Part shown: positions 11,791 to 45,270 of the stretch, piece after piece
Layout of the letters: every line of letters starts with the position of its first letter
How positions within the stretch are numbered: the first letter of the stretch is position 1
Assembly (NCBI GenBank): GCA_041482275.1
Contig: JBGPDL010000005.1
Span: 2,985-66,984, forward strand
Direction of reading: 5' to 3'
From: Gemmatimonadota bacterium
GTDB taxonomy: Bacteria; Gemmatimonadota; Gemmatimonadetes; Gemmatimonadales; GWC2-71-9
Length of the DNA: 64,000 bases
Program-made: the position numbers and the translations under genes
The notes under the pieces: model-generated
The model's input: only the letters and a program-made list of their open reading frames with translations
The model's database searches: none
Told to the model about the DNA's origin: nothing

Positions 11791-12654
11791 TTACCCCTGG
11801 TCGGGGCGGCGGGCGGCGGGGTCCTGGTGGTAGTACTGGCGGAGCTCGTCATACAGGTCGGGCTCCGCAGCTTTGAGCTGCTGCGGTTTCTCAAAAAACG
11901 TCTCGGTGGCGACCGCGAAGAACTCGGCGGGGTTCGTGACACCGTACTCGTGGAGCACGGTGCTACGACCAGCTCGCACATCCTGCTGCAGGCGTTCGTA
12001 GTGCGCGGAGAGGACGCGCGCCCATGACCGCACCAGGGATGGCGAGTCGAGCACGGGCGTGCCGCCCGCGTCGCCGTCCTCCTGGTCGAGCGCATGCGCG
12101 AACTCGTGCAGGGCGACGTCGTTGCCATCCGCCGGATTTGCACCGCCGGCGCGCACGTCATCCCAGGAGAGAATCACCATTCCGTCTCGCCACGCTTCCC
12201 CGCTCGCGACTACGGGAGCCGGCGGAGGCGCGATCTGGCCTACATGCGGCGCGTACTTCGGTCGAAACGCGCTGGGATAGACGAGGATTCGTCTGACTGT
12301 GGGGTAGCAGGGGCCGTCGAGGTGCAGCAGCAGCAGGCAGGCGTGCGCCGCGATCGTGACCCGCATCTCCGCCGTGATCTCGAGGCCGCCGCATCCCTCG
12401 AACGGCTTGTCGTGCACGAACACCTGCACCAGCTGCAGCAGACGCTCGTGCTCCTCCGCCGACAACCCGCTCGCCAGCGGGACGTTCCGAGCGATGATCT
12501 CGTTCCAGCCGTCGGGGATCGGCTCGGTGCGCAGCCGGACGGTACCTCGCGTCGAGCCGATGCGCGGTAGGAGAGCTCGCGCGACCAGCACCGCCACGGT
12601 CAGGACAAGAGCCACCGCTGCGATGACCAAGAGGGCCTGCAGCGCGTCCGGCAC
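11791..12654 (-). CDS. mtfA: MtfA-like zinc metallopeptidase (M90 family) with an N-terminal TM helix
   Basis: 287 aa with the zinc motif HEFAHALD and surrounding M90/MtfA-like sequence. The GTG start is preceded by GAGGAGA. Confidence 0.75.
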   Translation of the reverse strand: MPDALQALLVIAAVALVLTVAVLVARALLPRIGSTRGTVRLRTEPIPDGWNEIIARNVPLASGLSAEEHERLLQLVQVFVHDKPFEGCGGLEITAEMRVTIAAHACLLLLHLDGPCYPTVRRILVYPSAFRPKYAPHVGQIAPPPAPVVASGEAWRDGMVILSWDDVRAGGANPADGNDVALHEFAHALDQEDGDAGGTPVLDSPSLVRSWARVLSAHYERLQQDVRAGRSTVLHEYGVTNPAEFFAVATETFFEKPQQLKAAEPDLYDELRQYYHQDPAARRPDQG

Positions 12655-12738: not shown

Positions 12739-14574
12739 TTACCCGAACACCTCGAGCGCCACCTCCACCTTCCCGAACGGCGCGCTCACCTGCACGCCCT
12801 GCACCGTGCCCTTCACTTGCTGGAACATCTCGCGCGCGATCTTGACCCCTTCGGCGAGCGCAGCCTCTTTGCCCTTGTCCTGCGCCTGGCGCATGCGCCC
12901 GAGCACTGACTCTGGCACCACCACGCCGGGCACTTCGTTCGCGAGAAACTCCGCGTTGCGGAGGCTGATGATCGGCCAGATCCCCGCCACGATGGGGATG
13001 CGGAACTGCTCCACCCGCTTGAGGAACTGCTCGAGCTGCGCGGGATCGAACACCGGCTGCGTCACCGCGAAGTCCGCGCCCGCATCCACCTTCCACGCGA
13101 ACCGCGACAGCTCGCGGTCCAGGTCGACTGCCGCGGGGTTCACCCCCACGCCGATCGCGAACCGGGTCGGCTGGCCGATGGGGTTGCCGCCGGGATCGAG
13201 CCCGTGGTTCAACCGGTATACCAGATTCGTGAGCCCGATGGCGTCGATGTCGAACACCGCGGTCGCGTCGGGATATGGGCCCATCTTGGGCGGGTCACCC
13301 GTGATGATCAGAATATTGCAGAGCCCCGCGGCGGCGGCGCCCAGCACGTCCGACAGCATGCCGAGCAGGTTGCGGTCGCGGCACGAATAGTGGGTGACGG
13401 TCTCGATCCCCACCTCACGCTGGATCATGAGCGACGAGAGCAGCGCCCCCATGCGGCTCTGCGCGCGCGGGCCGTCGGGCACGTTCACCGCGTCGACGCC
13501 CGCCGCCTTGAGCGCCCGGCACTGCGCGAACATCGGCGCGGGATCGACGCCGCGCGGCGGCACGATCTCCACGCTCGTGACGAGCTCGCCCCGGGCCAGC
13601 TTCGCGCCCCAGCGGGACCGCTCGGCCAACGGCACTGCCTCGACCCCCGCGGGCGGGGCCACCAGGTCCCGCGACACCACCACGGGCTGGTGGCGCGGCA
13701 CCACGCTCGCCACGTAGTCGCGGATCTTCTTGATGTGCTCGGGAGTCGTGCCGCAACACCCTCCCACGATGCGCGCGCCGGCCTCAATCATGCGGCGCGC
13801 GTAGCTCGCCATGTACTCGGGGCTCGCGAGGTAAATCTTCCGGTCGCCCACATCCTTCGGCAGGCCGGCGTTCGGCACGGCGGAGATGGGGCGGTCGGTT
13901 GCCTTGACCAGCTTCTCCACCGCTTCGAGCACCCCGGCCGGGCCCACCGAGCAATTCACCCCGACCGCGTCCGCGCCCCACGCGGCGAGTTGTTTGGCGA
14001 ACGTCTCGGGTGCCGTGCCGTAATGGGTGAGTCCGTCGTCGCCCACCGTCATCTGCGCGATCACGGGGAGGTCCGAGAGACTCTGCACCGCGCGCAGCGC
14101 TTCGTGGATCTCATCCACGTCCGAAAACGTCTCCAGGATGAACCCGTCCACGCCGCCCGCGAGCAGGCCCCGCACCTGGCGCTGGAAGTGCGCGAACGCC
14201 TCCTCCCGCGAGGTTGCGCCGAACGGTTCGATCCGGACGCCGAGCGGCCCGATCGCGCCAGCGACGCTCGCCCGTCCCGCCGCGGCCTGGCGCGCCAGCT
14301 CGGCGGCAGCCCGGTTGATCTTCTCGGTGTCGTCGGCCAGCCCGTAGCTCCCCAGCTTCACCGGATTCGCACCGAACGTGTTCGTCTCGAGGATCTCCGC
14401 GCCGGCGCGCACGTAGGCCTCGTGCACGTCCTGGACGAGCTTGGGCTGCTTCAGGCTCAGCTCGTCGTAACAGACGTTCAGCAGGAAGCCCTTCGAGTAC
14501 AGCATCGTACCCATCGCCCCGTCGAGGACGTGGACCTTGCCGTCTTCCAGCAGCTCGCGAAGCGTGATGGTCAT
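12739..14574 (-). CDS. Bifunctional homocysteine S-methyltransferase / 5,10-methylenetetrahydrofolate reductase (YitJ-like)
   Basis: The N-terminal half (LDGAMGT...ETNTF..N..., with GGCCGT near the end of the domain) matches the homocysteine-binding domain. The C-terminal half is MetF-like. Start trimmed to ATG 14574 (MTITLRELLEDGK). Confidence 0.9.
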   Translation of the reverse strand: MTITLRELLEDGKVHVLDGAMGTMLYSKGFLLNVCYDELSLKQPKLVQDVHEAYVRAGAEILETNTFGANPVKLGSYGLADDTEKINRAAAELARQAAAGRASVAGAIGPLGVRIEPFGATSREEAFAHFQRQVRGLLAGGVDGFILETFSDVDEIHEALRAVQSLSDLPVIAQMTVGDDGLTHYGTAPETFAKQLAAWGADAVGVNCSVGPAGVLEAVEKLVKATDRPISAVPNAGLPKDVGDRKIYLASPEYMASYARRMIEAGARIVGGCCGTTPEHIKKIRDYVASVVPRHQPVVVSRDLVAPPAGVEAVPLAERSRWGAKLARGELVTSVEIVPPRGVDPAPMFAQCRALKAAGVDAVNVPDGPRAQSRMGALLSSLMIQREVGIETVTHYSCRDRNLLGMLSDVLGAAAAGLCNILIITGDPPKMGPYPDATAVFDIDAIGLTNLVYRLNHGLDPGGNPIGQPTRFAIGVGVNPAAVDLDRELSRFAWKVDAGADFAVTQPVFDPAQLEQFLKRVEQFRIPIVAGIWPIISLRNAEFLANEVPGVVVPESVLGRMRQAQDKGKEAALAEGVKIAREMFQQVKGTVQGVQVSAPFGKVEVALEVFG

Positions 14575-14592
14575 CCGTTGTCCGTCACCCGG

Positions 14593-14631
14593 AAAAGCAA
14601 GACCCGTCCGGCCGAGCAGCCGCCAAACGGG
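14593..14631 (-). terminator. Terminator-like hairpin plus T-rich tract in the 5' leader of the YitJ-like gene (possible attenuator or riboswitch expression platform)
   Basis: The minus strand reads CCCGT-TTGGCGGCTGCTCGGCCGG-ACGGG followed by TCTTGCTTTTCC. It lies about 20 nt upstream of the ATG. A T-rich run is rare in this GC-rich window. Confidence 0.35.
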
Positions 14632-14754: not shown

Positions 14755-14813
14755 AGTGGAGGTTGGTGAAGGTTACTCCTCCACCATCTTCCACTCTCCT
14801 CCACCACCCTCAC
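14755..14813. repeat. Hairpin element with tandem 10-nt arms (GGTGGAGGNN family), 40 bp upstream of cydA
   Basis: AGTGGAGGTTGGTGAAGGTTA faces TCCTCCACCATCTTCCACT(CTCCTCCACCACCCTCAC). 15 of 19 positions are complementary. The same decamer core occurs in the element inside glcF (41277-41361). Confidence 0.7.
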
Positions 14814-14852
14814 GACCATCCTCCCCTTTCCAAGTAGCTACTTTTCGCAACC

Positions 14853-16193
14853 ATGCCCGACCTCCTCGCCGCGCGCTCGCAGATGGGCATCTCGCTCGCC
14901 TTTCACATCGTGTTCGCGGTCATCGGGATCGCGATGCCGCTCATGATGGTCGTCGCCGAACGGCGCTGGCGGGTGACGGGGCACGCGATCTATCTGGACC
15001 TTGCGAAGCGGTGGGCCGCAGGAACCGCCATTCTCTTCTCGGTGGGCGCGGTGTCCGGGACGGTGCTGTCGTTCGAGCTGGGGCTCTTGTGGCCTGCCTT
15101 CATGCAGCTCGCGGGGCCGATCATCGGGATGCCGTTCTCGCTCGAAGGGTTCGCGTTCTTCACCGAAGCCATATTCCTCGGCATCTACCTGTATGGCTGG
15201 GACCGCATCTCGCCCCGGGCGCACCTCTGGGCCGGCGTGGCCGTGGCGGTGAGCGGGGCCGCGTCCGGCGTGTTCGTGGTGATCGCCAATGCGTGGATGA
15301 ACGCGCCCGCGGGTTTCGAGCTCGTGAACGGCCATGTGGTGAACGTCGACCCGATCGCCGCGATGGGGAACGCGGCGGCCCTCTCGCAGACCATCCACGT
15401 GACGCTCGCGGCGTACGCCGCCACTGGGTTCGCCGTCGCCGGGATCCACGCGTTCCTGCTGCTCAAAGATCCGGCGAATGCGTTTCACCGCCGCGCGCTC
15501 GAGATTGCGCTCCTCGTGGGCGCGCCCGCCGCCATCCTGCAGCCGCTGTCGGGCGATCTCTCGGCGCATCACGTCGCCGTGCATCAGCCGGTGAAGCTCG
15601 CCGCCGCGGAAGCCCTGTTCCAGACTCGGGCGGGGGCGCCCCTCACGCTGGGCGGCTGGCCCGACGTAGCGGCGCGCGCAACGCGGTTCGCGATCGAAGT
15701 CCCGTACGGGCTGTCATTGCTCGCCTTCCATGATCCTCACGCCGAGGTGAAGGGGCTCGACCTTGTCCCCCCTAGCGACTGGCCCAACATCCCGGCGGTG
15801 CATCTGTCATTCCAGCTCATGGTGGCGCTCGGCACGTACCTGGCGGTGGTCTCCCTCTGGGTGGGCTGGCTCGCGTGGCGCCGGGCGGACCTGGCGGACC
15901 ACCGCTGGCTGATGCGGGCGATCGCGCTCGCCACGCCGCTCGGTTTCGTGGCGGTGGAGGCGGGATGGATGGTGACCGAGCTGGGTCGGCAGCCATGGGT
16001 GATCTACGGCGTGCTGAAAACGGCAGACGCCGTCACGCCCATGCCGGGGCTCGTCGTGCCGTTCATCACCTTCACGTTGCTGTATTGTTTCCTCGGCGTG
16101 ATCGTCGTCTGGCTCATGTACCGACAGATCATCCGCAGTCCCGGGACTCCGGAGTGGCGGGGGTTCTACATGCCGAAGGGAGAGGCCGGATGA
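14853..16193 (+). CDS. cydA: Cytochrome bd-type quinol oxidase subunit I
   Basis: 446 aa. The N-terminus LLAARSQMGISLAFHIVFA.IGI matches the CydA signature. The short Q-loop length class and the cydB gene downstream support the call. Confidence 0.93.
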   Translation: MPDLLAARSQMGISLAFHIVFAVIGIAMPLMMVVAERRWRVTGHAIYLDLAKRWAAGTAILFSVGAVSGTVLSFELGLLWPAFMQLAGPIIGMPFSLEGFAFFTEAIFLGIYLYGWDRISPRAHLWAGVAVAVSGAASGVFVVIANAWMNAPAGFELVNGHVVNVDPIAAMGNAAALSQTIHVTLAAYAATGFAVAGIHAFLLLKDPANAFHRRALEIALLVGAPAAILQPLSGDLSAHHVAVHQPVKLAAAEALFQTRAGAPLTLGGWPDVAARATRFAIEVPYGLSLLAFHDPHAEVKGLDLVPPSDWPNIPAVHLSFQLMVALGTYLAVVSLWVGWLAWRRADLADHRWLMRAIALATPLGFVAVEAGWMVTELGRQPWVIYGVLKTADAVTPMPGLVVPFITFTLLYCFLGVIVVWLMYRQIIRSPGTPEWRGFYMPKGEAG

Positions 16194-16197
16194 CTGA

Positions 16198-16290
16198 TTG
16201 GTACGTAGTACGTGGTGCGTGGTTGCCTACGACGCGGGTTGCGCGCGCGGCCCGCGCCGCATGCCACCACGTACCACGCACCACGCAGGG
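16198..16290. repeat. Hairpin element with tandem 7-nt arms (GTACGTG/GTGCGTG family) filling the cydA-cydB junction
   Basis: Arm GTACGTAGTACGTGGTGCGTGGTTGCC (16201-16227) faces GCATGCCACCACGTACCACGCACCACGC (16259-16286). A GC-rich central mini-hairpin reads GCGGG..CCCGC. The cydA stop and cydB start are 106 nt apart instead of abutting. Confidence 0.7.
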
Positions 16291-16299
16291 GTGTGTTCC

Positions 16300-17331
16300 A
16301 TGACTCTCCCTGACGTTCTCGCCGGCACGATCTTCGTGGCACTCAACGCCTACGCGCTGCTCGCCGGCGCGGATTTTGGGGGCGGTGTGTGGGGTCTGCT
16401 CGCGAGCGGCCCACGCCGGGTGCGCCAGCGCGAGCTCGTCGCCCACGCGATCGCCCCGGTGTGGGAAGCGAACCACGTCTGGCTGATCCTCGCGCTGGTG
16501 CTGTTGTTCACCTGCTTTCCGCCTGCGTTCGCGCGCCTGGGCACGATGCTCCACATCCCGCTGTCGCTCGTGCTGATCGGGATCGTGCTGCGCGGCTCGG
16601 CGTTCACCTTTTGGCGCTACGGCAGCGCCGGGGACGAGGAGCAGCGTCGCTGGGGCACGGTGTTCGCCGTGGCGAGTCTCATCACGCCACTGTTGCTCGG
16701 GACGACGGTGGGCGCGATCGCGTCCGGCGCACTGGGAGAGGGAGGACGGGGGACCGGGGAGGGGTTCTACGGCAGTTACGTGGCGCCGTGGCTGAACCCC
16801 TTTGCCCTATCGGTGGGACTGTTCGCGCTGGTGGCGTTCTCGTTTCTCGCGGCCGTCTACTTGACGGTCGAGGCGCGGGAGCGGGAGTTGCAGGAGGATT
16901 TCCGCCGTCGCGCGCTCGGCTCCGGCGTGGCGTTGTTCGTCGCTGCCGCTCTGACCCTCTTGCTGTCGCGCGGGTATGCGCCCGCGGTACGCGATTCGCT
17001 CATCTTCGCCACCTGGGCGGTCGCGCTGCATCTCCTCACCGGCGCGGCGGCGATCACGGCCCTCGGTGCGCTGTGGTACCGCCGCTGGCGGCTCGCTCGG
17101 GCCGCGGCCGCGGCCCAAATCTCCCTGATCCTGTTGGGCTGGGCGCGCTCCCAGTACCCCTACATCCTGCCGCCCGACCTGACGATTGCGGCAGCGGCGG
17201 CGCCGGACGTGACGCTGCGGCTCACGCTCGGCGCGCTGGCGCTCGGCGCGGTGCTGCTGCTGCCGTCACTGTACTACTTGTTTCGAATCTTCAAGCACGG
17301 TCCTCCGTCACCCGTTGTCCGTGATCCGTAA
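16300..17331 (+). CDS. cydB: Cytochrome bd-type quinol oxidase subunit II
   Basis: Start set at ATG 16300 (MTLPDVLAGTIFVALNAYALLAGADFGGGVW, the canonical CydB N-terminus). The tracked TTG start at 16198 would translate the repeat element and was rejected. Confidence 0.9.
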   Translation: MTLPDVLAGTIFVALNAYALLAGADFGGGVWGLLASGPRRVRQRELVAHAIAPVWEANHVWLILALVLLFTCFPPAFARLGTMLHIPLSLVLIGIVLRGSAFTFWRYGSAGDEEQRRWGTVFAVASLITPLLLGTTVGAIASGALGEGGRGTGEGFYGSYVAPWLNPFALSVGLFALVAFSFLAAVYLTVEARERELQEDFRRRALGSGVALFVAAALTLLLSRGYAPAVRDSLIFATWAVALHLLTGAAAITALGALWYRRWRLARAAAAAQISLILLGWARSQYPYILPPDLTIAAAAAPDVTLRLTLGALALGAVLLLPSLYYLFRIFKHGPPSPVVRDP

Positions 17332-17375
17332 CGGCAGGCCACGCTTTCACAACCGATGACGGACAACGGACGACG
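17305..17375. repeat. Hairpin element with tandem 7-nt arms (ACGGACN / CGTCNTC family) at the cydB 3' end
   Basis: Arm 17305-17328 (CCGTCACCCGTTGTCCGTGATCCG) pairs with 17353-17375 (CCGATGACGGACAACGGACGACG) at about 19 of 23 positions. The left arm encodes the last 8 codons of cydB. The right arm ends 4 nt before the stop of the convergent small gene. Confidence 0.7.
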
Positions 17376-20560: not shown

Positions 20561-21467
20561 ACACGTCCACGGCGTCCGTCTGCGCGAACCCCGCCCGCGG
20601 GCCCCCGCCGATCACGTACAGCCTCCCGCCGAGCGCCGCCGCGGCGAGGCCGTGGCGCGCCGCGGGCAGCGCGGGCGCGACGGTCCAGCGGTCGGCCGCC
20701 GGGTCGTACACCTCGTGGCTGGCGAACACCGAGTTGCGGGTTTCGCCGCCCACCGCGTGGATCTTGCCGTCCAGCACCGCCGTCGCGAGGCCGCCGCGCC
20801 GGGTCGGCATGGGTGAGCGCGGGATCCAGCGATCGTGCGCGGGGTCGTACGCTTCGACCACGTCGTAGTTGCGGCCGGGGTCGAACGGCCGCCCGCCGAT
20901 CGCATAGACGAGACCGCCCACCGCCGCCGCGGCGAGATGGTCGCGCGGGGTCGGAATCGGCGCCGCCTCGCGCCAGCGGTCGGCGGCGGGGTCGTAGATC
21001 GCCGTCGCTGCGACCAGTCGCCGCCCCGCGCCCCATCCACCGACGACGATCAGTTTGCCGTTGACGACTCCCACGCCCGACGCACCCCGCGGCGCGGGGA
21101 GCGGCGCGCGCGGCTCCCAGCGGTTCGCGTGTCCATCATACAGCCACAGCGTCGGCTCCGGCACGAAGCTCTGCTCGGCGAGCCCTCCGACCGCGTACAA
21201 CGTGTCGCCCACGACGGCGAGCGGCATGTGATGGCGCGGGGCGGGGAGATCCGCGATGCGCTCCCAGCGGTTCGCCGCCGGGTCGTAGCGGAACACGGCG
21301 GCGGTGGGCCGGCTGGCGCGGTCGATCCCTCCGGCGACGTAGATCTTGCCGCGCAAGACCGCGGCGCTGAGTTCCTGGACGGGCTCGGGGAGCGGTGCGG
21401 CGGAGGACCAGGTACCGTCGCCTGCGAAGAACGGCAGAAAGACGAGGGCGGGTGGGACGAGTCGCAT
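20550..21467 (-). CDS. Kelch-repeat beta-propeller protein, secreted
   Basis: 305 aa with six repeats of the type G..Y..GG........V..YDP..N.W....P.P..R. The start overlaps the sucA stop by 1 nt. The 3' end overlaps the convergent HDAC gene by 11 nt. Confidence 0.85.
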   Translation of the reverse strand: MRLVPPALVFLPFFAGDGTWSSAAPLPEPVQELSAAVLRGKIYVAGGIDRASRPTAAVFRYDPAANRWERIADLPAPRHHMPLAVVGDTLYAVGGLAEQSFVPEPTLWLYDGHANRWEPRAPLPAPRGASGVGVVNGKLIVVGGWGAGRRLVAATAIYDPAADRWREAAPIPTPRDHLAAAAVGGLVYAIGGRPFDPGRNYDVVEAYDPAHDRWIPRSPMPTRRGGLATAVLDGKIHAVGGETRNSVFASHEVYDPAADRWTVAPALPAARHGLAAAALGGRLYVIGGGPRAGFAQTDAVDVFTP

Positions 21468-24400
21468 CAGGCGACGAACGCCGCCGCCAGCATGCGTGCC
21501 TGCTCCGCCTGGTGGGCCGCGGGGTAGCCTTCCGCCGGGCTCGAGCGCTCGGGGCGCGCGATCGCCTGCAGGGTGAGCGTCGCCGGCACGAGCTCGCGCA
21601 GCTGCGGCAGCATGAACTTCTGGGGTCCCATGTTACGCGGCTCCTCCTGCACCCACACGATCTCTCGCAGGTTGGGATAGCCGCGCACCAGGGCCGCGAG
21701 CTCCTCGCGCGGGAAGGGGTACAGCAGCTCCACACGCCCGATCGCCACGTGCGTGGCCTGAGCCCGCGCCGGCGCCAGCGTGAGGTCGTAGTACACCTTG
21801 CCGCTGCACAGGATGAGCCGCTCCACCGCCTCGCGGCGCTCGGCCGCCGTGCGATCGTCGAGCACCGGCTGGAACCGCCCGCCCGTCAGCTCTTCGAGCC
21901 GCGAGTTCGCCTGCGGCAGGCGCAGCAGGCTCTTGGGTGTGAACAGCACCAGCGGACGGAGCTCCGTGTGGCGCGCCTGGCGCCGCAGCAGGTGGAAGTA
22001 CTGCGCCGGCGTGGTGCAATTCGCGATGCGGATGTTCCCGTCGGCGCCGAGCGCCAAGAACCGCTCGATCCGTGCGCTCGAATGCTCGGGTCCCTGGCCC
22101 TCGTAGCCGTGCGGCAGGAGCAGGGTGAGACGGGACGTCTGCCCCCACTTCGCGAGCCCGGCGATGAGGAACTGATCGATGATGACCTCGGCGCCGTTCG
22201 TGAAGTCCCCGTATTGCGCCTCCCACAGCACCAGCGTCTCGGGCGCCGCCGCCGCGTAGCCGTACTCGAAGCCCAGGCAGGCGAACTCGGAGAGCGGGCT
22301 GTTGTGCAGCTCGAACGGCGCGCGCGCCCCAGGGAGGTTCTGGATCGGCGCATGACGGCGGCCGTCCGTCGCGTCGTGGAGCACCAGGTGGCGCTGGCTG
22401 AACGTGCCGCGCTCCGTGTCCTGACCTGTGAGGCGGATCGCCGTCCCTTCGGCCACGAGCGACGCGAATGCCAGGGCTTCGGCGTGTGCCCACTCGATCT
22501 GTCCCTCGGCAAGGGCCGGGCGCCGCCGCTCGAGCTGCTTCATCAGCTTGGGAATGACGCTGAAACCGTCCGGCACCATCAGGAGTTGCTCGTTCAACGT
22601 CGTGAGCAGCGGCGCGGCCACCGCCGTGTCGGGCTCGGCGACCGGCTGCTGCCCGCCGGAGATGCGCTGCGGCTCCTCGCCCGCTCCCGCTTCGCGCAGG
22701 TGAGCCTTGAGCGATTGCTGGATGTCCGCGAGCCGCTGGTACACCTGCTCGACGTCGGCGCTCGCCTGGGCCTCCGCTACCACGCCCTCGCGCGCCAGCT
22801 GGTCGGCGTAGCGCTGCCGCGCCGTGGGTGTCTGCTTGATCCGTTCGTACATCACCGGCTGCGTGTACGCCGGCTCGTCGCCTTCGTTGTGACCGTGCCG
22901 CCGGTAGCCCACCACGTCGATCACCACGTCCGCGTGGAACTTGTCGCGGTACAGCATGGCGAGCCGTGCCGCCGCGACGCACGCCTCCGGATCGTCGGCG
23001 TTGACGTGGACGATCGGCGCGTCGAAGCCCTTGGCCAAGTCGCTCGAGTAATCGGTCGAGCGCCCTTCCTTGGGGTCGGTGGTGAAGCCGAGCTGGTTGT
23101 TCGCGATCAGGTGGATGGTGCCGCCGGTGGTGTAGCCCTTCAGGCGGGCGAGGTTGAACGTCTCCGCCACCACCCCCTGGGCGGCGAACGACGCATCCCC
23201 GTGGATCAGCACGGGCAGCGCCACCGACCCGTCCTGGATCGCGTCCTTGCCGCGGCGATTGGTCTGGTTGGCCCGCGCGCGTCCCTCGACCACCGGGTTC
23301 ACGGCTTCGAGATGGCTCGGGTTCGGGGTCAGCGTGATGTTGACGGGCTTGCCCGCGGCGGTCTGGTACACGCCGTCGGCGCCGTGGTGGTACTTCACGT
23401 CGCCCGTGCCGCCCTCGGGCGTGAGTGTTTCCTCCACGTGCCGCCCGCCTTCGAACTCGGCGAAGATCGTCTCGTAGGGGAGTCCCACGATGTGGGCGAG
23501 CACGTTCAACCGGCCGCGGTGCGCCATGCCGAGCACCAGCCGCCGGGCCCCGCTCGCGCCGGCCAGCTCGATCGTCTGGTCGAGCATCGGGACGAGCACG
23601 TCGAGCCCCTCGATCGAGAAGCGCTTGTGGCCAAGGTAGGCCTTGTGCAAAAAGCGCTCGAGCGTCTCGACCGCCGTCAGGCGCGACAGCAGCTTGCGCC
23701 TTTCGTCGGGCGCAAGGGGCTTGCGATGCTCGCCCGATTCGATCACCTGACGCAGCCAGAGGCGCTCCTGGTGGCTGCCGATGTGCTCCACCTCGTACGA
23801 GATGGTGCCGCAGTACGTCTCCTGCAGCCTCGGATAGGCCTCGGCGAGCGTCCGCCCGGGGACGTAGATGCGCAGCAAGTCGGCCGGGATGCGGGCCATG
23901 ATCTCGGGGCTCAAGCCCAGCGGCGCGGGATCGAGCGCTGGATCGCCCGGCGGCTCGGAGCCAAGCGGGTCGAGCCGTGCGGCGAGGTGACCGAAATGCC
24001 GGATCGCTTTTACCAGCGCCATGGCGGCGGCCACATGCTTGAGATCTTCGACCCCGGGCTCCACCCCCGCGCCGGGGAGCGCGGAGCGGGGAGCGGTTCC
24101 TGTCGGTGCAGCAGAGGGCACCGCTCCCTGCTCCCCGCTCCCTTTGAGTCTCAGGCTCTCGAATACCGATCCGTAGAACCCGTCTGCGTCCTGGAGCAGA
24201 TCGTCGAGCCGACGGAGAAACATCCCCGACTCCGCCCCCTGTATGATGCGGTGATCGTAGGTCGACGTGATCGTCATGACCTTGGCCGGTCCACTCGAAC
24301 GGATCGCGCCGGTCGCGATGATCGAGCCTTGGCCCTTCATGAGGCGCGGCACCGAGGCGACCGTCCCGATGGTGCCGGGGTTCGTGAGCGTGATGGTCGC

Positions 24401-25090
24401 GCCTGCGAAGTCGTCCGGGAGGAGGCGGTTGGTGCGCGCCTTCTCGACCAGGCTCTCGTACGCCGCGTGGAAGGTCGCGAAGTCCATGGCCTCGGCGTGC
24501 CGGATGACGGGGACCACCAGGGCGTGGCTGCCGTCCTTCTTCTCCACGTCCACGGCGAGTCCGAGGTGCAGCGCATGCGGATCGAACCGGTGCGCCTTGC
24601 CCTCCACTTCCTGGAACGCGTGCGTCATCACCGGGAATTGGCGCGCGGCGCGCGCGATCGCGTGGCCGATCAAGTGGGTGAAAGAAACCTTCTTACCGGT
24701 CGCGGCGAGCGCGCTGTTCAGCTCGCGGCGCCGGGCGTCCAGGACATCGACCGCGATCTCGCGGAACGAGGTGGCGGTCGGGACGGACAGGGAGTCCGTC
24801 ATGTTCTGGACGAGACGGGCGGCGGGACCGGTGATGGGGGTCAGGCTCGTTGAGACCGTGAGCGGGGAGCTGGGAGCGGCACCCGCCGTGGCAGCGGAGG
24901 GAACCGGTCCCTGCTCCCCGCTCCCGAGCACTTCGGCGCGGCTCGTCGGGATCACCGGCAGCTCTGCCAGCTTCCCATTGTCGAAGAGGCTCCGCCACTC
25001 CTCGTCCACGGAGGAGGGATCCCGCAGGTACTGCTCGTACATCACCTGCACGAAGGCGGCATTGTGCGTGCCGAAGACGAACTCGCTCAC
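21467..25090 (-). CDS. sucA: 2-oxoglutarate dehydrogenase E1 component of the Kgd/OdhA type (E1o fused to an N-proximal E2-like acyltransferase domain)
   Basis: 1207 aa with a SucA N-terminus (FGTHNAAFVQVMYEQYLRDPSSVDEEWR). An acyltransferase catalytic domain ends in STYDHRIIQGAESG. A full E1o/TPP region follows (HRGRLNVL..., GDVKYH, NPSHLE). The start is GTG, with AGGTGA upstream. Confidence 0.93.
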   Translation of the reverse strand: MSEFVFGTHNAAFVQVMYEQYLRDPSSVDEEWRSLFDNGKLAELPVIPTSRAEVLGSGEQGPVPSAATAGAAPSSPLTVSTSLTPITGPAARLVQNMTDSLSVPTATSFREIAVDVLDARRRELNSALAATGKKVSFTHLIGHAIARAARQFPVMTHAFQEVEGKAHRFDPHALHLGLAVDVEKKDGSHALVVPVIRHAEAMDFATFHAAYESLVEKARTNRLLPDDFAGATITLTNPGTIGTVASVPRLMKGQGSIIATGAIRSSGPAKVMTITSTYDHRIIQGAESGMFLRRLDDLLQDADGFYGSVFESLRLKGSGEQGAVPSAAPTGTAPRSALPGAGVEPGVEDLKHVAAAMALVKAIRHFGHLAARLDPLGSEPPGDPALDPAPLGLSPEIMARIPADLLRIYVPGRTLAEAYPRLQETYCGTISYEVEHIGSHQERLWLRQVIESGEHRKPLAPDERRKLLSRLTAVETLERFLHKAYLGHKRFSIEGLDVLVPMLDQTIELAGASGARRLVLGMAHRGRLNVLAHIVGLPYETIFAEFEGGRHVEETLTPEGGTGDVKYHHGADGVYQTAAGKPVNITLTPNPSHLEAVNPVVEGRARANQTNRRGKDAIQDGSVALPVLIHGDASFAAQGVVAETFNLARLKGYTTGGTIHLIANNQLGFTTDPKEGRSTDYSSDLAKGFDAPIVHVNADDPEACVAAARLAMLYRDKFHADVVIDVVGYRRHGHNEGDEPAYTQPVMYERIKQTPTARQRYADQLAREGVVAEAQASADVEQVYQRLADIQQSLKAHLREAGAGEEPQRISGGQQPVAEPDTAVAAPLLTTLNEQLLMVPDGFSVIPKLMKQLERRRPALAEGQIEWAHAEALAFASLVAEGTAIRLTGQDTERGTFSQRHLVLHDATDGRRHAPIQNLPGARAPFELHNSPLSEFACLGFEYGYAAAAPETLVLWEAQYGDFTNGAEVIIDQFLIAGLAKWGQTSRLTLLLPHGYEGQGPEHSSARIERFLALGADGNIRIANCTTPAQYFHLLRRQARHTELRPLVLFTPKSLLRLPQANSRLEELTGGRFQPVLDDRTAAERREAVERLILCSGKVYYDLTLAPARAQATHVAIGRVELLYPFPREELAALVRGYPNLREIVWVQEEPRNMGPQKFMLPQLRELVPATLTLQAIARPERSSPAEGYPAAHQAEQARMLAAAFVA
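24074..24142. repeat. In-frame hairpin element (GGGGAGC heptad family), copy 1, inside sucA between the E2-like and E1 domains
   Basis: GGGGAGCGCGGAGCGGGGAGCGGTT faces GCACCGCTCCCTGCTCCCCGCTCCC, with 21 of 23 positions complementary. On the coding strand it is translated as KGSGEQGAVPSAAPTGTAPRSALPG. Confidence 0.75.
24859..24928. repeat. In-frame hairpin element (GGGGAGC heptad family), copy 2, inside sucA between the N-terminal segment and the E2-like domain
   Basis: GAGCGGGGAGCTGGGAGCGGCACC faces GAACCGGTCCCTGCTCCCCGCTCCCGAG. It is translated as LGSGEQGPVPSAATAGAAPSSPL. It has the same orientation and reading frame as copy 1 and is offset from it by exactly 783 nt. Confidence 0.75.
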
Positions 25091-25251
25091 GGCTTCAATT
25101 TAATCACCTGGCGAACCGCAGCGCCCTCCCTGGAGCCGAACGAACAGCAGTTGACGAGGCGCCGTCGCCGTGAGGCGGTAGCCCGTCGCCAGCCCCGAAT
25201 CGTTCACCCACCACACGGTGTTGGGGGCGTCGGACGGGAAAAAGTCGCCGG

Positions 25252-33661: not shown

Positions 33662-33744
33662 GGTGACGGAGAGAAGATACAGCGTCATCCGTCGTCCGTT
33701 ATCTGTCGTCCGTACGTCACCGGAGCCAACCGACGCGGATGACG
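33662..33744. repeat. Heptad-repeat element (CGTCNTC / ACGGACN family) in the AAA-SPFH intergenic region, with two crossing inverted-repeat pairings
   Basis: There are five tandem heptads: CGTCATC CGTCGTC CGTTATC TGTCGTC CGTACGT (33683-33717). GGTGACG (33662-33668) pairs with CGTCACC (33715-33721). CGTCATCCG (33683-33691) pairs with CGGATGACG (33736-33744). Confidence 0.65.
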
Positions 33745-33746
33745 AA

Positions 33747-35222
33747 TTACTGAAACAGATTCGGCGCGCCCCCGCCCGTCTTTCCAAAGCCCGGTCCCTT
33801 CGGCTCGGCGCGGGCGCGCACGTAGCCGAGCTCGTCGTTGCGGGAAATGCGCTTCTCCGCCACGAGGCCCTCGAGTACCAGCTCGCAGGCGGCCACCACG
33901 GTGCCCGGGTCCTTCTTCGCGGCGAGGCCCACCCGGTCCACGAGGTCGAGCAGACCCGGCACCACGCTGAAGCCCTTGAGGCAGGTCTCCGAGCGCTCGT
34001 CCATGGACATCTTGAGGGCTCCACCCTCGTCGAACCAGTGGACGATGTCGTCCACGTTGGCGCCGCCCACGCGGGACTCGAAGGTCTTGCCCGCGGCGCG
34101 CCGGATCAGGTCCTTGGCGATCGATTCGGGACCCTGCAGCTCGCCTTCGTACTCGAGCTCGAGCTTGCCCGTGATCGCGGGCAGGGCGGCGTAGATGTCC
34201 GAGATGCGGGGCACCGCCGTCTTTTCCTTGGTGGCGATGGAGCGTCGCTCGGCGTTCGACACCACGTTCTCGAGCACGCTGATCGGCAGCCGTTGTGACA
34301 CGCCCGAGCGCCGGTCGACCCGCTTGTCCTCCCGCGCCTCGAAGGCCACGCGCTCGATCAATTCCGCAATGAAGTCGGGCAGCCTGACCGGTCGCCCCGT
34401 GCGCTCGAGCCAGGCTTCCTGGCGGGTGATCGCCGCGCCGAGATCGACGGTGTGGGGATAATGGGTCCCGATCTCCGAGCCGATGCGGTCTTTCAGCGGC
34501 GTGATGATCTTGCCGCGGGCCGTGTAGTCCTCGGGGTTGGCGGTGAACACGAGCCCCACGTCGAGGTTCAGCCGGACGGGATAGCCTTTGATCTGGACGT
34601 CCCCCTCCTGCATGATGTTGAACAACCCCACCTGGATCTTGCCGGCGAGGTCGGGCAGCTCGTTGATGGCGAAGATGCCGCGATTGGCGCGCGGCAGGAG
34701 GCCGAAATGCATCGTGAGCTCGTCGGACAGCAGATGACCGCCGCGCGCCGCCTTGATGGGGTCCACGTCGCCGATGATGTCGGCGATGGTGACGTCCGGC
34801 GTGGCGAGCTTCTCCACGAAGCGCGAGTCGCGCGGCAGCCAGGCGATCGGTGCCGCGTCGCCCCGCTCGCCCACGAGCTCGCGGCCGAACTTGGAGATCG
34901 GCGCGAACGGATTGTCGTTCACCTCGCTGCCAGCGAGAAACGGGACTTCTTCGTCGAGCAGCGTGACGAGCTGCCGCAGAATGCGGCTCTTCGCCTGCCC
35001 CCGCAGGCCGAGCAGGATGAAGTTGTGGCGCGACAGGACGGCGTTCACGAGCTGCGGGATGACGGTGTCCTCGTAGCCCACGATGCCCGGGAACAGCGGC
35101 GAGCCATTTTCGAGCAGGCAGACGAGATTCTCCCGCAGCTCGTCCTTGACGGTGCGGTGCATCCGAGCGGGACTCGCCCACTCGGTCTGTTTCAACTCGC
35201 CCAGTGTGGTCGGCTTGGTCAT
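33747..35222 (-). CDS. AAA+ ATPase of the Mg-chelatase ChlI/BchI-like type (often annotated as sigma-54-interaction-domain ATPase)
   Basis: 491 aa with Walker A-like GLRGQAKS and Walker B-like [11 protein letters not shown]. The overall ChlI-like layout has a long C-terminal helical region. Confidence 0.8.
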
Positions 35223-38290: not shown

Positions 38291-38488
38291 ATGAAGCGTA
38301 TCGCATTGGCCCTCGCCGTCGTGGCGCTGGGCGCCTGTAAGAAGGCGGAGCAGCAGCCCGCGCAGAGTCAGATGATGAGCGACACGTCGCACATGATGAT
38401 GAGCGACACCTCGCACATGCAGATGATGGTCGACACCTCGATGCACGTGATGAAGGCCGACACGTCGAAGCCCAAGAAAAAGCCGTAA
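38291..38488 (+). CDS. Small lipoprotein with Met/His-rich tandem repeats (putative metal-binding)
   Basis: The ATG is preceded by AAGAGGAG. The signal/lipobox is MKRIALALAVVALGAC. The mature part reads QMMSDTSHMMMSDTSHMQMMVDTSMHVMKADTSKPKKKP and is encoded by about four degenerate 21-24-nt DNA repeats. Confidence 0.65.
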   Translation: MKRIALALAVVALGACKKAEQQPAQSQMMSDTSHMMMSDTSHMQMMVDTSMHVMKADTSKPKKKP

Positions 38489-40559: not shown

Positions 40560-41825
40560 TCAAGCATAATAGCCCGCCGCCCGGTACGATTCGTCGAGCA
40601 GCTCGACCGGATGCCGCACGGCGGCCGTAAGGCCCGCCGCTCCAAGCCCGGCGCCGAGCTGCATGAGGCACCCGGGATTGCCAGTGGCCACCACCTGAGG
40701 CCGGGCCTCGGCGAGCGAGGCGAGTTTCGGCGCCAGTACGGCGCGCGACATCGCCGGCTCGACCAGCGTGAACAGCCCCGCGCTGCCGCAACACTGTGCC
40801 GCGTCGGCCGTGGCGGTCACCCGCAGGACGGGAATCGCGGCCAACAGGCGCAGCGGCGGCTCGGCGATCCGCTGGGCGTGCAGCAGGTGGCACGGCGGAT
40901 CGTAGGCGACGGTGGCGTCGACCGGCGCGCCGGGCCGCGGGCCCCGGTCTGCGAGCAGCTCGCTCACGTCCCGCACCCGGGCGGCGAAGCTCGTCCCGGA
41001 ACCGTCGACCAGGTGGCCGTACTCCTTGAGCGTCGCTCCGCACCCCGCGCTGTTGACGACGATGAGCTCTGCGGCGTCGCTGCCGAAGGCGGCGACGTTG
41101 GTTCGAGCGAGTCGCCGCGCCTCGTCCCGCAGGCCGGCGTGCGCGTGCAACGCGCCGCAGCACACCTGCGCCGGGACCTCGCGCACGGCGTAGCCGTTCA
41201 CTTCGAGGGTGCGGATGGTGGCGTCGTGCACGTGAGAGAAGAGGCCGTCCATGATGCAGCCGCGGAACAACAGGACGGTGGAGGATGGTGGAGGATGGTG
41301 GAGGATGTCGCGGGGCGCACCTCTACCACCCTCCACTGCCCTCCACCGCCCTCCACCGCCCTTCGGCGCCGTTGCCGCGAGCATCCCCATCGCGAACCGG
41401 AACCGCCCCCACCCCGCGAGGCGGCGCGGGATTCCTGTCGCGCGCAACGCCCGCGCCAACGCGTACAGGATGCGCGATCCGCCCGCGCCCGTGAGGGCCG
41501 CGAGCGCCGCGCGCACGAGGGGCGGCACACCCCCCGCTCGGCGCTCCGCCATGAAGGCCCGGGCGGCCTCCAGCCCGCGGCCGTAGCCCACGCCCGACGG
41601 GCAGACGGGCTCGCACCCGCGGCACCCGAGACAGCGGTCGAGGTGCAGAGCGACGCCGGGGTCGTCCGGCGCCAACTCGCCGGTCTCGACCGCGCGCATC
41701 AGCTCGATGCGGCCGCGCGGGCTGTCGGCCTCGTCGCCGGTGGCGAGAAAGGTGGGGCACGCCTGGAGGCAGAAGCCACAATGCACGCAACTGTCCAGCG
41801 CTTCGAAGCCCCCGCGATCCGTCAT
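40560..41825 (-). CDS. glcF: Glycolate oxidase iron-sulfur subunit
   Basis: Start at ATG 41825 (MTDRGGFEALDSCVHCGFCLQACP). It has two 4Fe-4S motifs (CxxCxxCxxxCP) and two CCG domains. It contains a roughly 28-aa repeat-derived insert. Confidence 0.9.
   Translation of the reverse strand: MTDRGGFEALDSCVHCGFCLQACPTFLATGDEADSPRGRIELMRAVETGELAPDDPGVALHLDRCLGCRGCEPVCPSGVGYGRGLEAARAFMAERRAGGVPPLVRAALAALTGAGGSRILYALARALRATGIPRRLAGWGRFRFAMGMLAATAPKGGGGRWRAVEGGRGAPRDILHHPPPSSTVLLFRGCIMDGLFSHVHDATIRTLEVNGYAVREVPAQVCCGALHAHAGLRDEARRLARTNVAAFGSDAAELIVVNSAGCGATLKEYGHLVDGSGTSFAARVRDVSELLADRGPRPGAPVDATVAYDPPCHLLHAQRIAEPPLRLLAAIPVLRVTATADAAQCCGSAGLFTLVEPAMSRAVLAPKLASLAEARPQVVATGNPGCLMQLGAGLGAAGLTAAVRHPVELLDESYRAAGYYA
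41277..41361. repeat. In-frame hairpin element with tandem 10-nt arms (GGTGGAGGNN family) inside glcF
   Basis: (GGTGGAGGAT)x3 faces CACCTCTACCACCCTCCACTGCCCTCCACCGCCCTCCACCGCCC. On the coding strand it is translated as KGGGGRWRAVEGGRGAPRDILHHPPPSST. Confidence 0.75.
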
Positions 41826-45128: not shown

Positions 45129-45157
45129 AGGTAAATAGTATACGGGAAAGGCCACGG

Positions 45158-45257
45158 CTAGACGCGCCGACGCACAGGGGAGGACAGCGAAGAGGGGCCA
45201 GGACAACGCTTGTCCTGACCCCTCACACCGTTCACCGCTGCGCGTCGGCGCGTCTAG
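45158..45257. repeat. 100-nt nested palindrome between the sigma-factor gene and the LON-N/glc operon (probable terminator or structured RNA)
   Basis: The outer perfect 16-nt inverted repeat is CTAGACGCGCCGACGC (45158-45173) / GCGTCGGCGCGTCTAG (45242-45257), and it extends imperfectly. The inner hairpin is GAGGGGCCAGGACAA-CGC-TTGTCCTGACCCCTC (about 45192-45224). Confidence 0.6.
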
Positions 45258-45270
45258 TTGTGGCAGGTCT

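Follow-up and report, generated by a model that had tools for sequence, protein, structure and literature searches.

Repetitive extragenic palindromes (REPs) are defined as imperfect palindromes of 20-40 nt that have a stem of 5-13 bp and, on one side, an unpaired GTAG (or CGTC) tag (PMC3733652). For a second group of small palindromes, the Rickettsia palindromic elements (RPE), no dedicated transposase is known (PMC10969869; PMC3733652). Tandem heptamers form a further group: the GGGAATC heptamers of Xanthomonas include 70-75 cases per genome in which two convergent arrays lie on opposite strands, and cyanobacterial GGGGAYT and short tandemly repeated repetitive (STRR) heptamers have also been described (Rehm et al., 2015, PMC4692102). 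Long simple-sequence repeats (LSSRs) rich in heptanucleotides were reported earlier, according to the papers that cite this work (Mrazek, 2007, cited in PMC4679880, PMC4692102). For Gemmatimonadota or Gemmatimonadetes, no description of such repeats was found in the literature. Here, we analyze a stretch of 64,000 nt from a Gemmatimonadota bacterium (GenBank assembly GCA_041482275.1, contig JBGPDL010000005.1, positions 2,985 to 66,984 of the forward strand; hereafter the window), in which three hairpins with arms built from tandem short units accompany the cytochrome bd genes cydA and cydB. The favoured reading, with a probability of roughly 55%, is that they are part of a lineage-wide population of REP/RPE-like palindromic repeats of the Gemmatimonadales, small and non-autonomous, which are termed tandem-arm hairpins here. 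Every family is characterized by a particular unit of 7, 8 or 10 nt and a particular loop.

The window was compared with 80 cydA loci and 80 glcF loci of relatives (given as L001 and so on), ~2.0-2.1 Mb of DNA in total. Its CydA is 59-90% identical to CydA of the 80 relatives, with the top values in metagenome-assembled genomes of soil Gemmatimonadales. The cydAB region contains the following features:

14755..14824, plus strand: E1, decamer-arm hairpin between the divergent genes metH and cydA, located 29 nt before the cydA ATG
14853..16193, plus strand: cydA, cytochrome bd subunit I, open reading frame (ORF) of 446 aa, stop at 16191-16193
16194..16299, plus strand: E2, hairpin filling the 106-nt cydA-cydB spacer, the exact gap from the cydA stop to the cydB ATG (16300)
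16300..17331, plus strand: cydB, subunit II, 343 aa, last 8 codons and stop supplied by the left arm of E3
17306..17375, no strand assigned: E3, ACGGACN / CCGTNNN-family hairpin located where the stops of cydB and of a minus-strand ORF converge

A preliminary description of this sequence had located three elements around cydAB and characterized them as inverted arms of tandem short units; both the coordinates and the units check out. E1 uses the decamer family CCTCCACCNN / GGTGGAGGNN, with a GGTGGAGGTT-type arm first and the CCTCCACCNN arm second. It is asymmetric, with 2 units in the left arm and 4.6 copies of period 10 in the right arm (Tandem Repeats Finder), and its predicted RNA fold reaches -26 kcal/mol (z-score -3.7). 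The arms of E2 (16201-16223 and 16266-16287) hold 3 heptamers each (GTACGTG / GTGCGTG) around a loop of 42 nt containing an inner GC hairpin, which exceeds the range of 10-30 nt previously given for the loops, and the element is bordered by a duplicated TGAC that represents the former stop/start overlap. The spacer contains no stop in the cydB frame in 5/5 genomes, an outcome that has a chance of roughly one half at 70% GC; the reading as an N-terminal CydB extension was rejected and E2 is treated as non-coding, the start codon being conserved at the aligned position. E3 has arms of 24 nt that are 83% complementary and consist of degenerate ACGGACN units. Its left arm does encode the last eight residues of CydB, as had been proposed (PSPVVRDP, then TAA), and its right arm finishes 3 nt short of the stop of the convergent ORF. 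A terminator scan gave no intrinsic terminator at E3, and a T run is absent after the element on both strands.

The abundance of such structures was assessed with a strict detector, which accepts a hairpin only if its two arms are tandem arrays of equal period and mutually reverse-complementary. It reports 3-4 elements in the window and none in 200 shuffled sequences (100 dinucleotide-preserving and 100 fourth-order Markov shuffles); looser settings yield 0.025 per shuffle. Arrays of period 7 (5 observed, 0.45 expected) and of period 10 (2 observed, 0.04 expected) are likewise over-represented, so that chance or composition, at a window G+C of ~70%, is ruled out as the source of the hairpins. 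Altogether, the window holds at least eight hairpins with tandem 7- or 10-mer arms and predicted RNA folds between -26 and -75 kcal/mol (z -2 to -7). With about one element per 8 kb throughout the window, the idea that cydAB is specially decorated had to be abandoned. Strict elements occur at 4.3 per 100 kb in close relatives versus 0.9 in distant ones (other phyla and other Gemmatimonadota), and 62 elements were found in the 833 kb surrounding glcF. A scan of the window against Rfam 15 returned a SAM-II riboswitch as its sole match, and no curated RNA family fits the tandem-arm hairpins.

The three cydAB sites differ between relatives. In most close relatives, cydA and cydB overlap (GTGA) or are separated by 1-16 nt. 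A spacer is restricted to 5 of ~28 close relatives and measures 106 nt in the window, L001, L008 and L017 and 103 nt in L021. The genomes that bear it are scattered on the cydA tree, and L002, the sister of the window, is without it. The gap had already been called unusual, and the spacing comparison across relatives agrees: judged from the alignments, the spacer is an unusual derived state. The five spacers align with each other and their heptamers vary (GTGCGTG, GTGAGTG, GTGCGCG); compensatory changes affect 9/35 pairs of the hairpin, and the covariation score is reached by 0/500 shuffles and is far lower in slid controls. At the end of cydB, the conserved sequence stops at …YYLFRIFK or …YYLFRVFK, beyond which the tails of relatives vary and contain hairpins of ACGGACG, GTCAGAC (L014) or RTCAGCC (L013, L020, L021, L032, L080, L023) heptamers, or none. 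Upstream of cydA, decamer hairpins are present at the same place and in the same orientation in L002, L005, L006, L008 and L009, which share the synteny of the window, while L010 and L011 have the C-rich arm alone and L013 has a heptamer hairpin. All three sites are empty in many relatives, and because of these absences no cydAB hairpin can be essential. Direct G-rich heptamer arrays (GGGGAGC x3-4, GGGGAAG x3, GCGGGAA x4) are often found in the C-terminal tail of CydA in genomes without the spacer (L003, L004, L007, L010, L012-L015, L020, L026, L080), directly upstream of the overlapping cydB start, and contain a Shine-Dalgarno (SD)-like GGGAGG.

Similar hairpins occupy coding sequence elsewhere in the window:

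24857..24926, minus strand: E5, GGGGAGC heptamer hairpin, in frame in Kgd linker 1 (…LGSGEQGPVPSAATAGAAPSSPL…), z -5.2
24073..24143, minus strand: E4, GGGGAGC heptamer hairpin, in frame in Kgd linker 2 (…KGSGEQGAVPSAAPTGTAPRSALPG…), family and loop as in E5
21467..25099, minus strand: Kgd/OdhA-type fusion of 2-oxoglutarate dehydrogenase E1 and an E2 acyltransferase domain, 1,210 aa (Pfam)
41272..41362, minus strand: E6, decamer hairpin (GGTGGAGGNN; GGTGGAGGAT), in frame in the GlcF linker (Fer4-CCG domains), -75 kcal/mol, z -7

Translated elements inside genes had been overlooked; E4, E5 and E6 are not extragenic and lie in frame within ORFs, accounting for 3/8 window elements, and a fourth (E3) has one coding arm. 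Assigning E6 to a 5' untranslated region before an ATG at 41252 proved wrong, as translation and Pfam place it inside GlcF. In Kgd, Pfam detects 2-oxogl_dehyd_N (11-41), 2-oxoacid_dh (87-305), E1_dh (499-795), Transket_pyr and OxoGdeHyase_C, and E4 and E5 are positioned exactly between the N-terminal segment, the acyltransferase domain and the E1 domain. The E2-E1 fusion architecture of Kgd/OdhA is best known from Actinobacteria; it is present here in Gemmatimonadales, with conservation in at least 12 relatives.

Across 13 genomes, 22 of 24 Kgd linkers fold, with z-scores of about -1.7 to -9.7 that are at or below -2 in 20/24. Their units, of at least five types, include GGGGAGC, GGGAGAA, CGGGAKG, GGGGCTC and GGGGGAC, and the encoded peptides are quite different. 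The GlcF linker contains a tandem-arm hairpin in 75/75 distinct relatives of 66-83% protein identity, which represent one orthologous site and are not independent; most z-scores range from -3 to -10, unit periods of 10, 7, 8 or 11 occur, and unrelated peptides are encoded. In addition, the C-terminal tail of GlcD carries a hairpin-encoded in-frame insertion before the stop in 42/57 genomes, with 15 empty sites including that of the window, where GlcD ends in …CREWAGVA* and overlaps glcE by ATGA. The insertions comprise 17-74 aa (mostly 25-37 aa), belong to at least six families and preserve the ATGA or GTGA overlap in every filled case. The CGGAATG array at this site begins directly after the native CGGGAATGG (…CREW), a start that fits either slippage seeding or microhomology-guided template switching. 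The longest tails, of 74 aa, occur in L121 and L131 and contain a 42-nt direct repeat (GSGDQGGLGGPGGF, 3 copies) nested in the hairpin element. In total, five or six orthologous sites keep their hairpin although its unit differs in sequence and even in length (7, 8, 10), and the earlier proposal that architecture shared without sequence reflects a common generating process is supported.

The turnover of resident elements can be followed between close pairs. The left arm of the hairpin 5' of cydA in L009 has two decamers more than that of its sister L006, and the right arms are identical; this difference in one arm only is therefore direct evidence of slippage, which the preliminary description had listed among the possible mechanisms. 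A change of units in one arm is also seen in kgd linker 1 of L016. In the GlcD tail, clean in-frame deletions of 63 nt (L105 versus L106) and 72 nt (L093 versus L107) removed the hairpin between flanks that are 98-99% identical. These deletions run between direct repeats of 3-4 nt and leave 1-1.5 units of the left arm; the junctions of filled and empty pairs are of the deletion type and not target-site duplications. Slippage in place, co-variation of the arms and deletion of the hairpin are all directly visible in these comparisons.

Whole elements also recur at different sites, which emerged only after the elements of all relatives were clustered (146 elements; at least 80% identity over at least 55 nt, i.e. 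a match that passes through the loop). Members of the CGGAATG family are located in the GlcF linker of 16 genomes and in the GlcD tail of 11. The GGGGAGC family is present in the two Kgd linkers as well as in the L154 GlcF linker, and the GGGAGAA family in Kgd linker 1 or 2, depending on the genome. The GlcD tail of L088 and the GlcF linker of L085 are identical at 73/78 positions with their loops aligned, the GlcF linker of L154 matches Kgd linker 2 of the window at ~85% over 71 nt, and the two Kgd linkers are a cross-site copy of the whole element, loop included. At the protein level, the peptide VRNAEFGMRN…SAFxTPHSAL is common to the GlcD tail and the GlcF linker, and GSGEQGAVPSAAP to both Kgd linkers. 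Since loops align across non-orthologous sites, the families are discrete elements copied between sites and not convergent look-alikes only. From these copies we infer a copying mechanism. The description of the families as unrelated in sequence holds for their units; each is nevertheless a discrete family with its own loop that recurs at unrelated sites, so that copying would have to be combined with parallel origin in situ. In-place turnover, retention at harmless sites, cross-site copies and polymorphisms are matters of observation.

The same comparisons bear on an explanation that we consider unlikely, namely that the hairpins are a local mutational by-product of slippage microsatellites (long simple-sequence repeats) and subsequent fold-back inverted duplication, with intrastrand template switching maintaining the palindrome. 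No transfer between sites would then occur, and similar units at different sites would stem from a limited vocabulary that is stop-free in all frames, compatible with linkers and able to form hairpins. This explanation accommodates unit counts that differ in a single arm, a GlcD-tail CGGAATG array that the native CGGGAATGG could have seeded, the direct, un-inverted arrays of CydA tails and of the metH leader (see below) and the window elements that are without full-length dispersed copies; in other bacteria, the over-representation of heptamers is attributed to polymerase slippage (PMC4692102, PMC4679880). What it does not accommodate are the loops, which are free of the unit vocabulary and still shared across non-orthologous sites (the 73/78 identity), and the families at the single GlcD-tail site, which number at least six and look like replacement, not drift.

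The remaining members and a related array in the window are:

33683..33760, no strand assigned: E7, ACGGACG family, in a ~100-nt spacer between two co-directional minus-strand genes
45151..45264, no strand assigned: degenerate class member, 35-nt inverted arms around an inner terminator-like hairpin
14567..14590, minus strand: direct (non-inverted) ACGGAYG heptamers between the SAM-II riboswitch and the metH-like start, the ATG being part of the last unit

Orthologous copies of E7 are present in L088 and L105. At the site of the degenerate member, clean tandem arms of 8-mers (AGACGGGT / AGACGCCG) enclose the inner hairpin in L101, L105 and L107. This inner hairpin, GGCCAGG…CCTGGCC, is conserved between the window element and L101 449-561, L105 6469-6583 and L107 6503-6635 and is followed by TTT in the relatives; tandem arms seem to have built up around a pre-existing terminator-like hairpin here. 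Rfam offers only generic long-hairpin miRNA models at this site, with scores far under threshold. Direct ACGGAYG heptamers (2-4 units) are likewise located upstream of the metH-like gene in L005, L006, L009 and L013, and resemble the TAACTGA direct repeats of Beggiatoaceae that end 1 nt before start codons (PMC4679880). The adjacent SAM-II riboswitch (SAM_alpha, RF00521; 14620-14694, minus strand; 53 bits versus a gathering score of 36) lies upstream of a gene for a fused homocysteine S-methyltransferase and methylenetetrahydrofolate reductase (12739-14574), its aptamer is visibly conserved in relatives of the same synteny, and a terminator-like hairpin (14602-14617) is found downstream of it. 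On the other side of this intergenic region, the 25 nt preceding the cydA ATG (CAAGTAGCTACTTTTCGCAACC, window 14825-14852) correspond to the end of another gene (…KLK* then TAGCTATTTT), which lies upstream in L003, L007 and L080, relatives without a metH neighbour, and because of this match E1 lies at an apparent rearrangement junction. A short palindrome inside a Kelch-repeat gene (CGCGGGGAGCGGCGCGCGCGGCTCCCAGCG, 21093-21122, 19-nt arms with 89% complementarity, GGGGAGC motif) may be a decayed element, and a tandem repeat at 38369-38468 (period 24-27 nt, ~3 copies, GATGATGAGCGACACCTCGCACAT) is unrelated to the hairpin class. Finally, L051, a member of the Verrucomicrobiae, has two AT-richer inverted arrays with heptamer arms (12332-12430 and 13319-13429; AAGCTCC / TTGGAGC), the pyrimidine-rich arm first; the tandem-arm architecture therefore extends beyond Gemmatimonadota.

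The positions of these elements between unidirectional or convergent genes and inside genes resemble the distribution of REPs (PMC3733652). Together with the presence of several hairpin families in one genome, the CGTC that opens the arms of E3 and E7 and strand-asymmetric mismatches, as might arise if one DNA strand were the substrate, this could suggest bona fide REPs or REP doublets forming hairpins (REPINs), mobilized by a REP-associated tyrosine transposase (RAYT, of the IS200/IS605-type Y1 class) encoded elsewhere in the genome. Such membership, which had been raised in the preliminary description, is very improbable. The window elements have stems of 20-40 bp made of tandem units in place of the 5-13 bp of REPs (PMC3733652), an unpaired GTAG or CGTC tag is missing, and the CGTC of E3 and E7 lies within a paired unit; a CGTC-tagged REP assignment of the ACGGACG family was rejected as it does not fit this structure. 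No Y1 (HUH) transposase, the gene of which would be flanked by the repeats in a REP system, was found among the ~45 window ORFs, and 2.1 Mb of relatives gave no true match to HUH…Y..NP with a crude regular expression for which only ~0.5-1.4 hits are expected; the single match is a histidine kinase and was discarded as false.

The strand asymmetry is that of the coding hairpins. Counting 1x1 and 2x2 mismatches within their stems, read on the sense strand, A·C outnumbers G·U by 81 to 26; with one representative per cluster the values are 38 and 11 (p = 1.4e-4), and by cluster 19 and 4. Selection on the sense-mRNA structure of in-frame elements is disfavoured: the G·U excess that it predicts was looked for and not found, and in the coding hairpins A·C exceeds the tolerated G·U mismatches. 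Comparison of sense and antisense folding energies is uninformative in this respect, being biased by G-rich flanks. Strand-biased mutation, selection that weakens the mRNA hairpin, or a hairpin that forms on the other DNA strand are possible sources of the A·C excess. A second asymmetry concerns the order of the arms: the purine-rich arm comes first in 75/75 GlcF linkers and also in strongly skewed elements at other positions, a hand count of independent sites giving ~17 versus 5. This polarity of the hairpins is identical on both strands, and the ACGGAYG and TCAGCC families are exceptions.

These data also speak to the view that the hairpin, as DNA or RNA, is itself the function, acting as a 3'-end or intercistronic stabilizer, terminator, domain-boundary pause or binding site, and that tandem arms are simply the easiest route to a long stem. 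The hairpin is kept in 75/75 GlcF and 22/24 Kgd linkers while the peptide changes completely, the spacer shows compensatory changes, a terminator-like hairpin sits inside the 45151-45264 element, and operon junctions and convergent gene ends are positions at which enterobacterial REP-type RNA hairpins act. This account is nonetheless distinctly unlikely, given that non-coding sites are patchy (spacer in 5 of ~28, cydB-end hairpin missing in several relatives, GlcD-GlcE junction empty in 15/57), that E3 is without a U tract and that the A·C bias runs counter to mRNA-fold selection; retention in linkers is equally explained by selection on linker length.

Under the favoured reading of a lineage-wide population of palindromic repeats, whole elements would be copied to new sites, with template switching during replication, guided by microhomology, or a single-strand-DNA transposase that escaped notice as candidate processes. 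Once resident, an element turns over fast, as slippage adds and removes units, arm-to-arm (quasi-palindrome) correction, selection or both keep the arms complementary, and the whole hairpin can be deleted between direct repeats of 3-4 nt. Selection retains only harmless copies, located in untranslated regions, at intercistronic junctions, at gene ends or in disordered linkers and tails, and copies in linkers and tails have to be in frame and stop-free and are translated. In compact operons with stop/start overlaps, two routes may be open: the element becomes a translated tail, as in CydB and, in relatives, in GlcD and CydA, or it duplicates the junction, as in the cydA-cydB spacer. Retention follows tolerance, being patchy at non-coding sites and nearly universal in linkers, where a deletion would shorten a needed spacer.

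Several observations weigh against this reading. For none of the window elements did the 2.1 Mb of relatives yield a near-identical copy of full length at another site. The cross-site copies share a gene cluster or are at most 17 kb apart, and ectopic gene conversion among hairpins already in place could therefore look like mobility. No mobilizing enzyme was found among the ~45 window ORFs or, by the crude motif screen, in the 2.1 Mb of relatives, clear target-site duplications and conserved element termini were not detected, and the TGAC duplication of the spacer is also demanded by function. Near-universal retention in the GlcF and Kgd linkers could mean that the hairpin itself is selected. 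Moreover, the reading leaves both the excess of A·C over G·U and the purine-rich-arm-first rule unexplained. A more far-reaching version, conceivable though doubtful, is that tandem-arm hairpins are self-propagating DNA that is independent of any transposase, being seeded by slippage on native sequence, turned into palindromes and copied to microhomologous sites by replication template switching, and corrected from arm to arm. If this is true, disordered linkers and C-terminal tails are, as a by-product, routinely written into housekeeping proteins and overlapping genes are pried apart across Gemmatimonadota, and the purine-first polarity and the A·C bias of the sense strand are traces left by whichever strand folds into the hairpin.

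For cydAB, the loss of the cydA-cydB stop/start overlap is apparent from the comparison with relatives. It could entail lost translational coupling, while the spacer and cydB-end elements could provide an intercistronic or 3' RNA hairpin like a REP stabilizer and the 5' arms SD-like or anti-SD-like sequences; subunit stoichiometry, transcript stability or termination may be altered as a result. More generally, a single hairpin slot in a conserved enzyme that holds dozens of unit sequences amounts to a natural experiment, which separates the needs of the DNA process from those of the protein. The elements show how DNA of selfish or mutational origin can give rise to disordered linkers and tails and can remodel GTGA/ATGA overlaps into a spacer. 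In-frame hairpins will disturb gene calling, assembly, PCR and long-read sequencing of these genomes, and unit-count variation could serve as a strain marker. If confirmed genome-wide, the class extends the known range of small palindromic repeats in bacteria by a distinct architecture and by a phylum, Gemmatimonadota, that is common in soil and has received little study.

Comparison with known systems places the tandem-arm hairpins among, and apart from, several repeat classes. Mycobacterial interspersed repetitive units (MIRU) are direct tandem repeats of 40-100 bp at operon junctions that preserve the overlap or coupling of the flanking ORFs; siting and conserved overlap are alike, whereas MIRUs are not hairpins. 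Quasi-palindrome correction by replication template switching is established in E. coli genetics and explains arm complementarity without selection, as palindrome deletion between short direct repeats explains the clean losses; it is, however, a mutational mechanism and not an element family, and is not known to create entire elements or to disperse them. Miniature inverted-repeat transposable elements are recognized by terminal inverted repeats with a target-site duplication of fixed length and by a related autonomous insertion sequence that has the same termini. The arms of the present elements are inverted repeats, and the spacer is flanked by a TGAC duplication that function also requires; an autonomous insertion sequence of this kind was not found, with no transposase among the window ORFs and none noticed near the elements of relatives. 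Repeats forming intrastrand triplexes (PMC4666352) represent a different motif class.

With REPs and REPINs, the elements share abundant extragenic hairpins of several families, a preference for co-directional and convergent sites, some copies inside genes, inverted dimers able to form long hairpins and plausible roles as RNA 3' stabilizers (PMC2817692, PMC3733652). They differ in having internally repetitive arms and neither an unpaired tag, a 5-13-bp stem nor a detected RAYT. The heptanucleotide arrays of LSSRs are matched by 7-nt tandem arrays far over expectation that often form convergent pairs, and the closest published architecture is that of the Xanthomonas arrays, which also combine inverted tandem arms, lineage enrichment, G-rich units and, among close relatives, differences in length and sequence at shared intergenic sites (PMC4692102). 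There, one unit dominates the genome and coding sequence is strongly avoided; here, unit families and lengths (7, 8, 10, 11) are many, with at least four families in 64 kb and 3/8 elements in coding sequence, each family has its own loop, whole elements recur at other sites, and many are translated in frame. In behaviour, the RPEs are closest, as small palindromes of multiple families that are inserted in frame into unrelated housekeeping genes and encode family-specific peptides (PMC10969869; PMC3733652), a trait that is found here in the linkers of Kgd and GlcF and the tails of GlcD, CydB and CydA. RPEs are ~100-150 bp long, conserved in sequence and not built from tandem units, and some have a CGTC tag, whereas the present elements measure 65-110 nt, have tandem-unit arms with units that change at a fixed site and are concentrated in inter-domain linkers and C-terminal tails. 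Homology to the Rickettsia families is not expected, as host phylum, GC content and size differ. On balance, the tandem-arm hairpins are best read as repeats of the REP/RPE kind that probably constitute a distinct variety.

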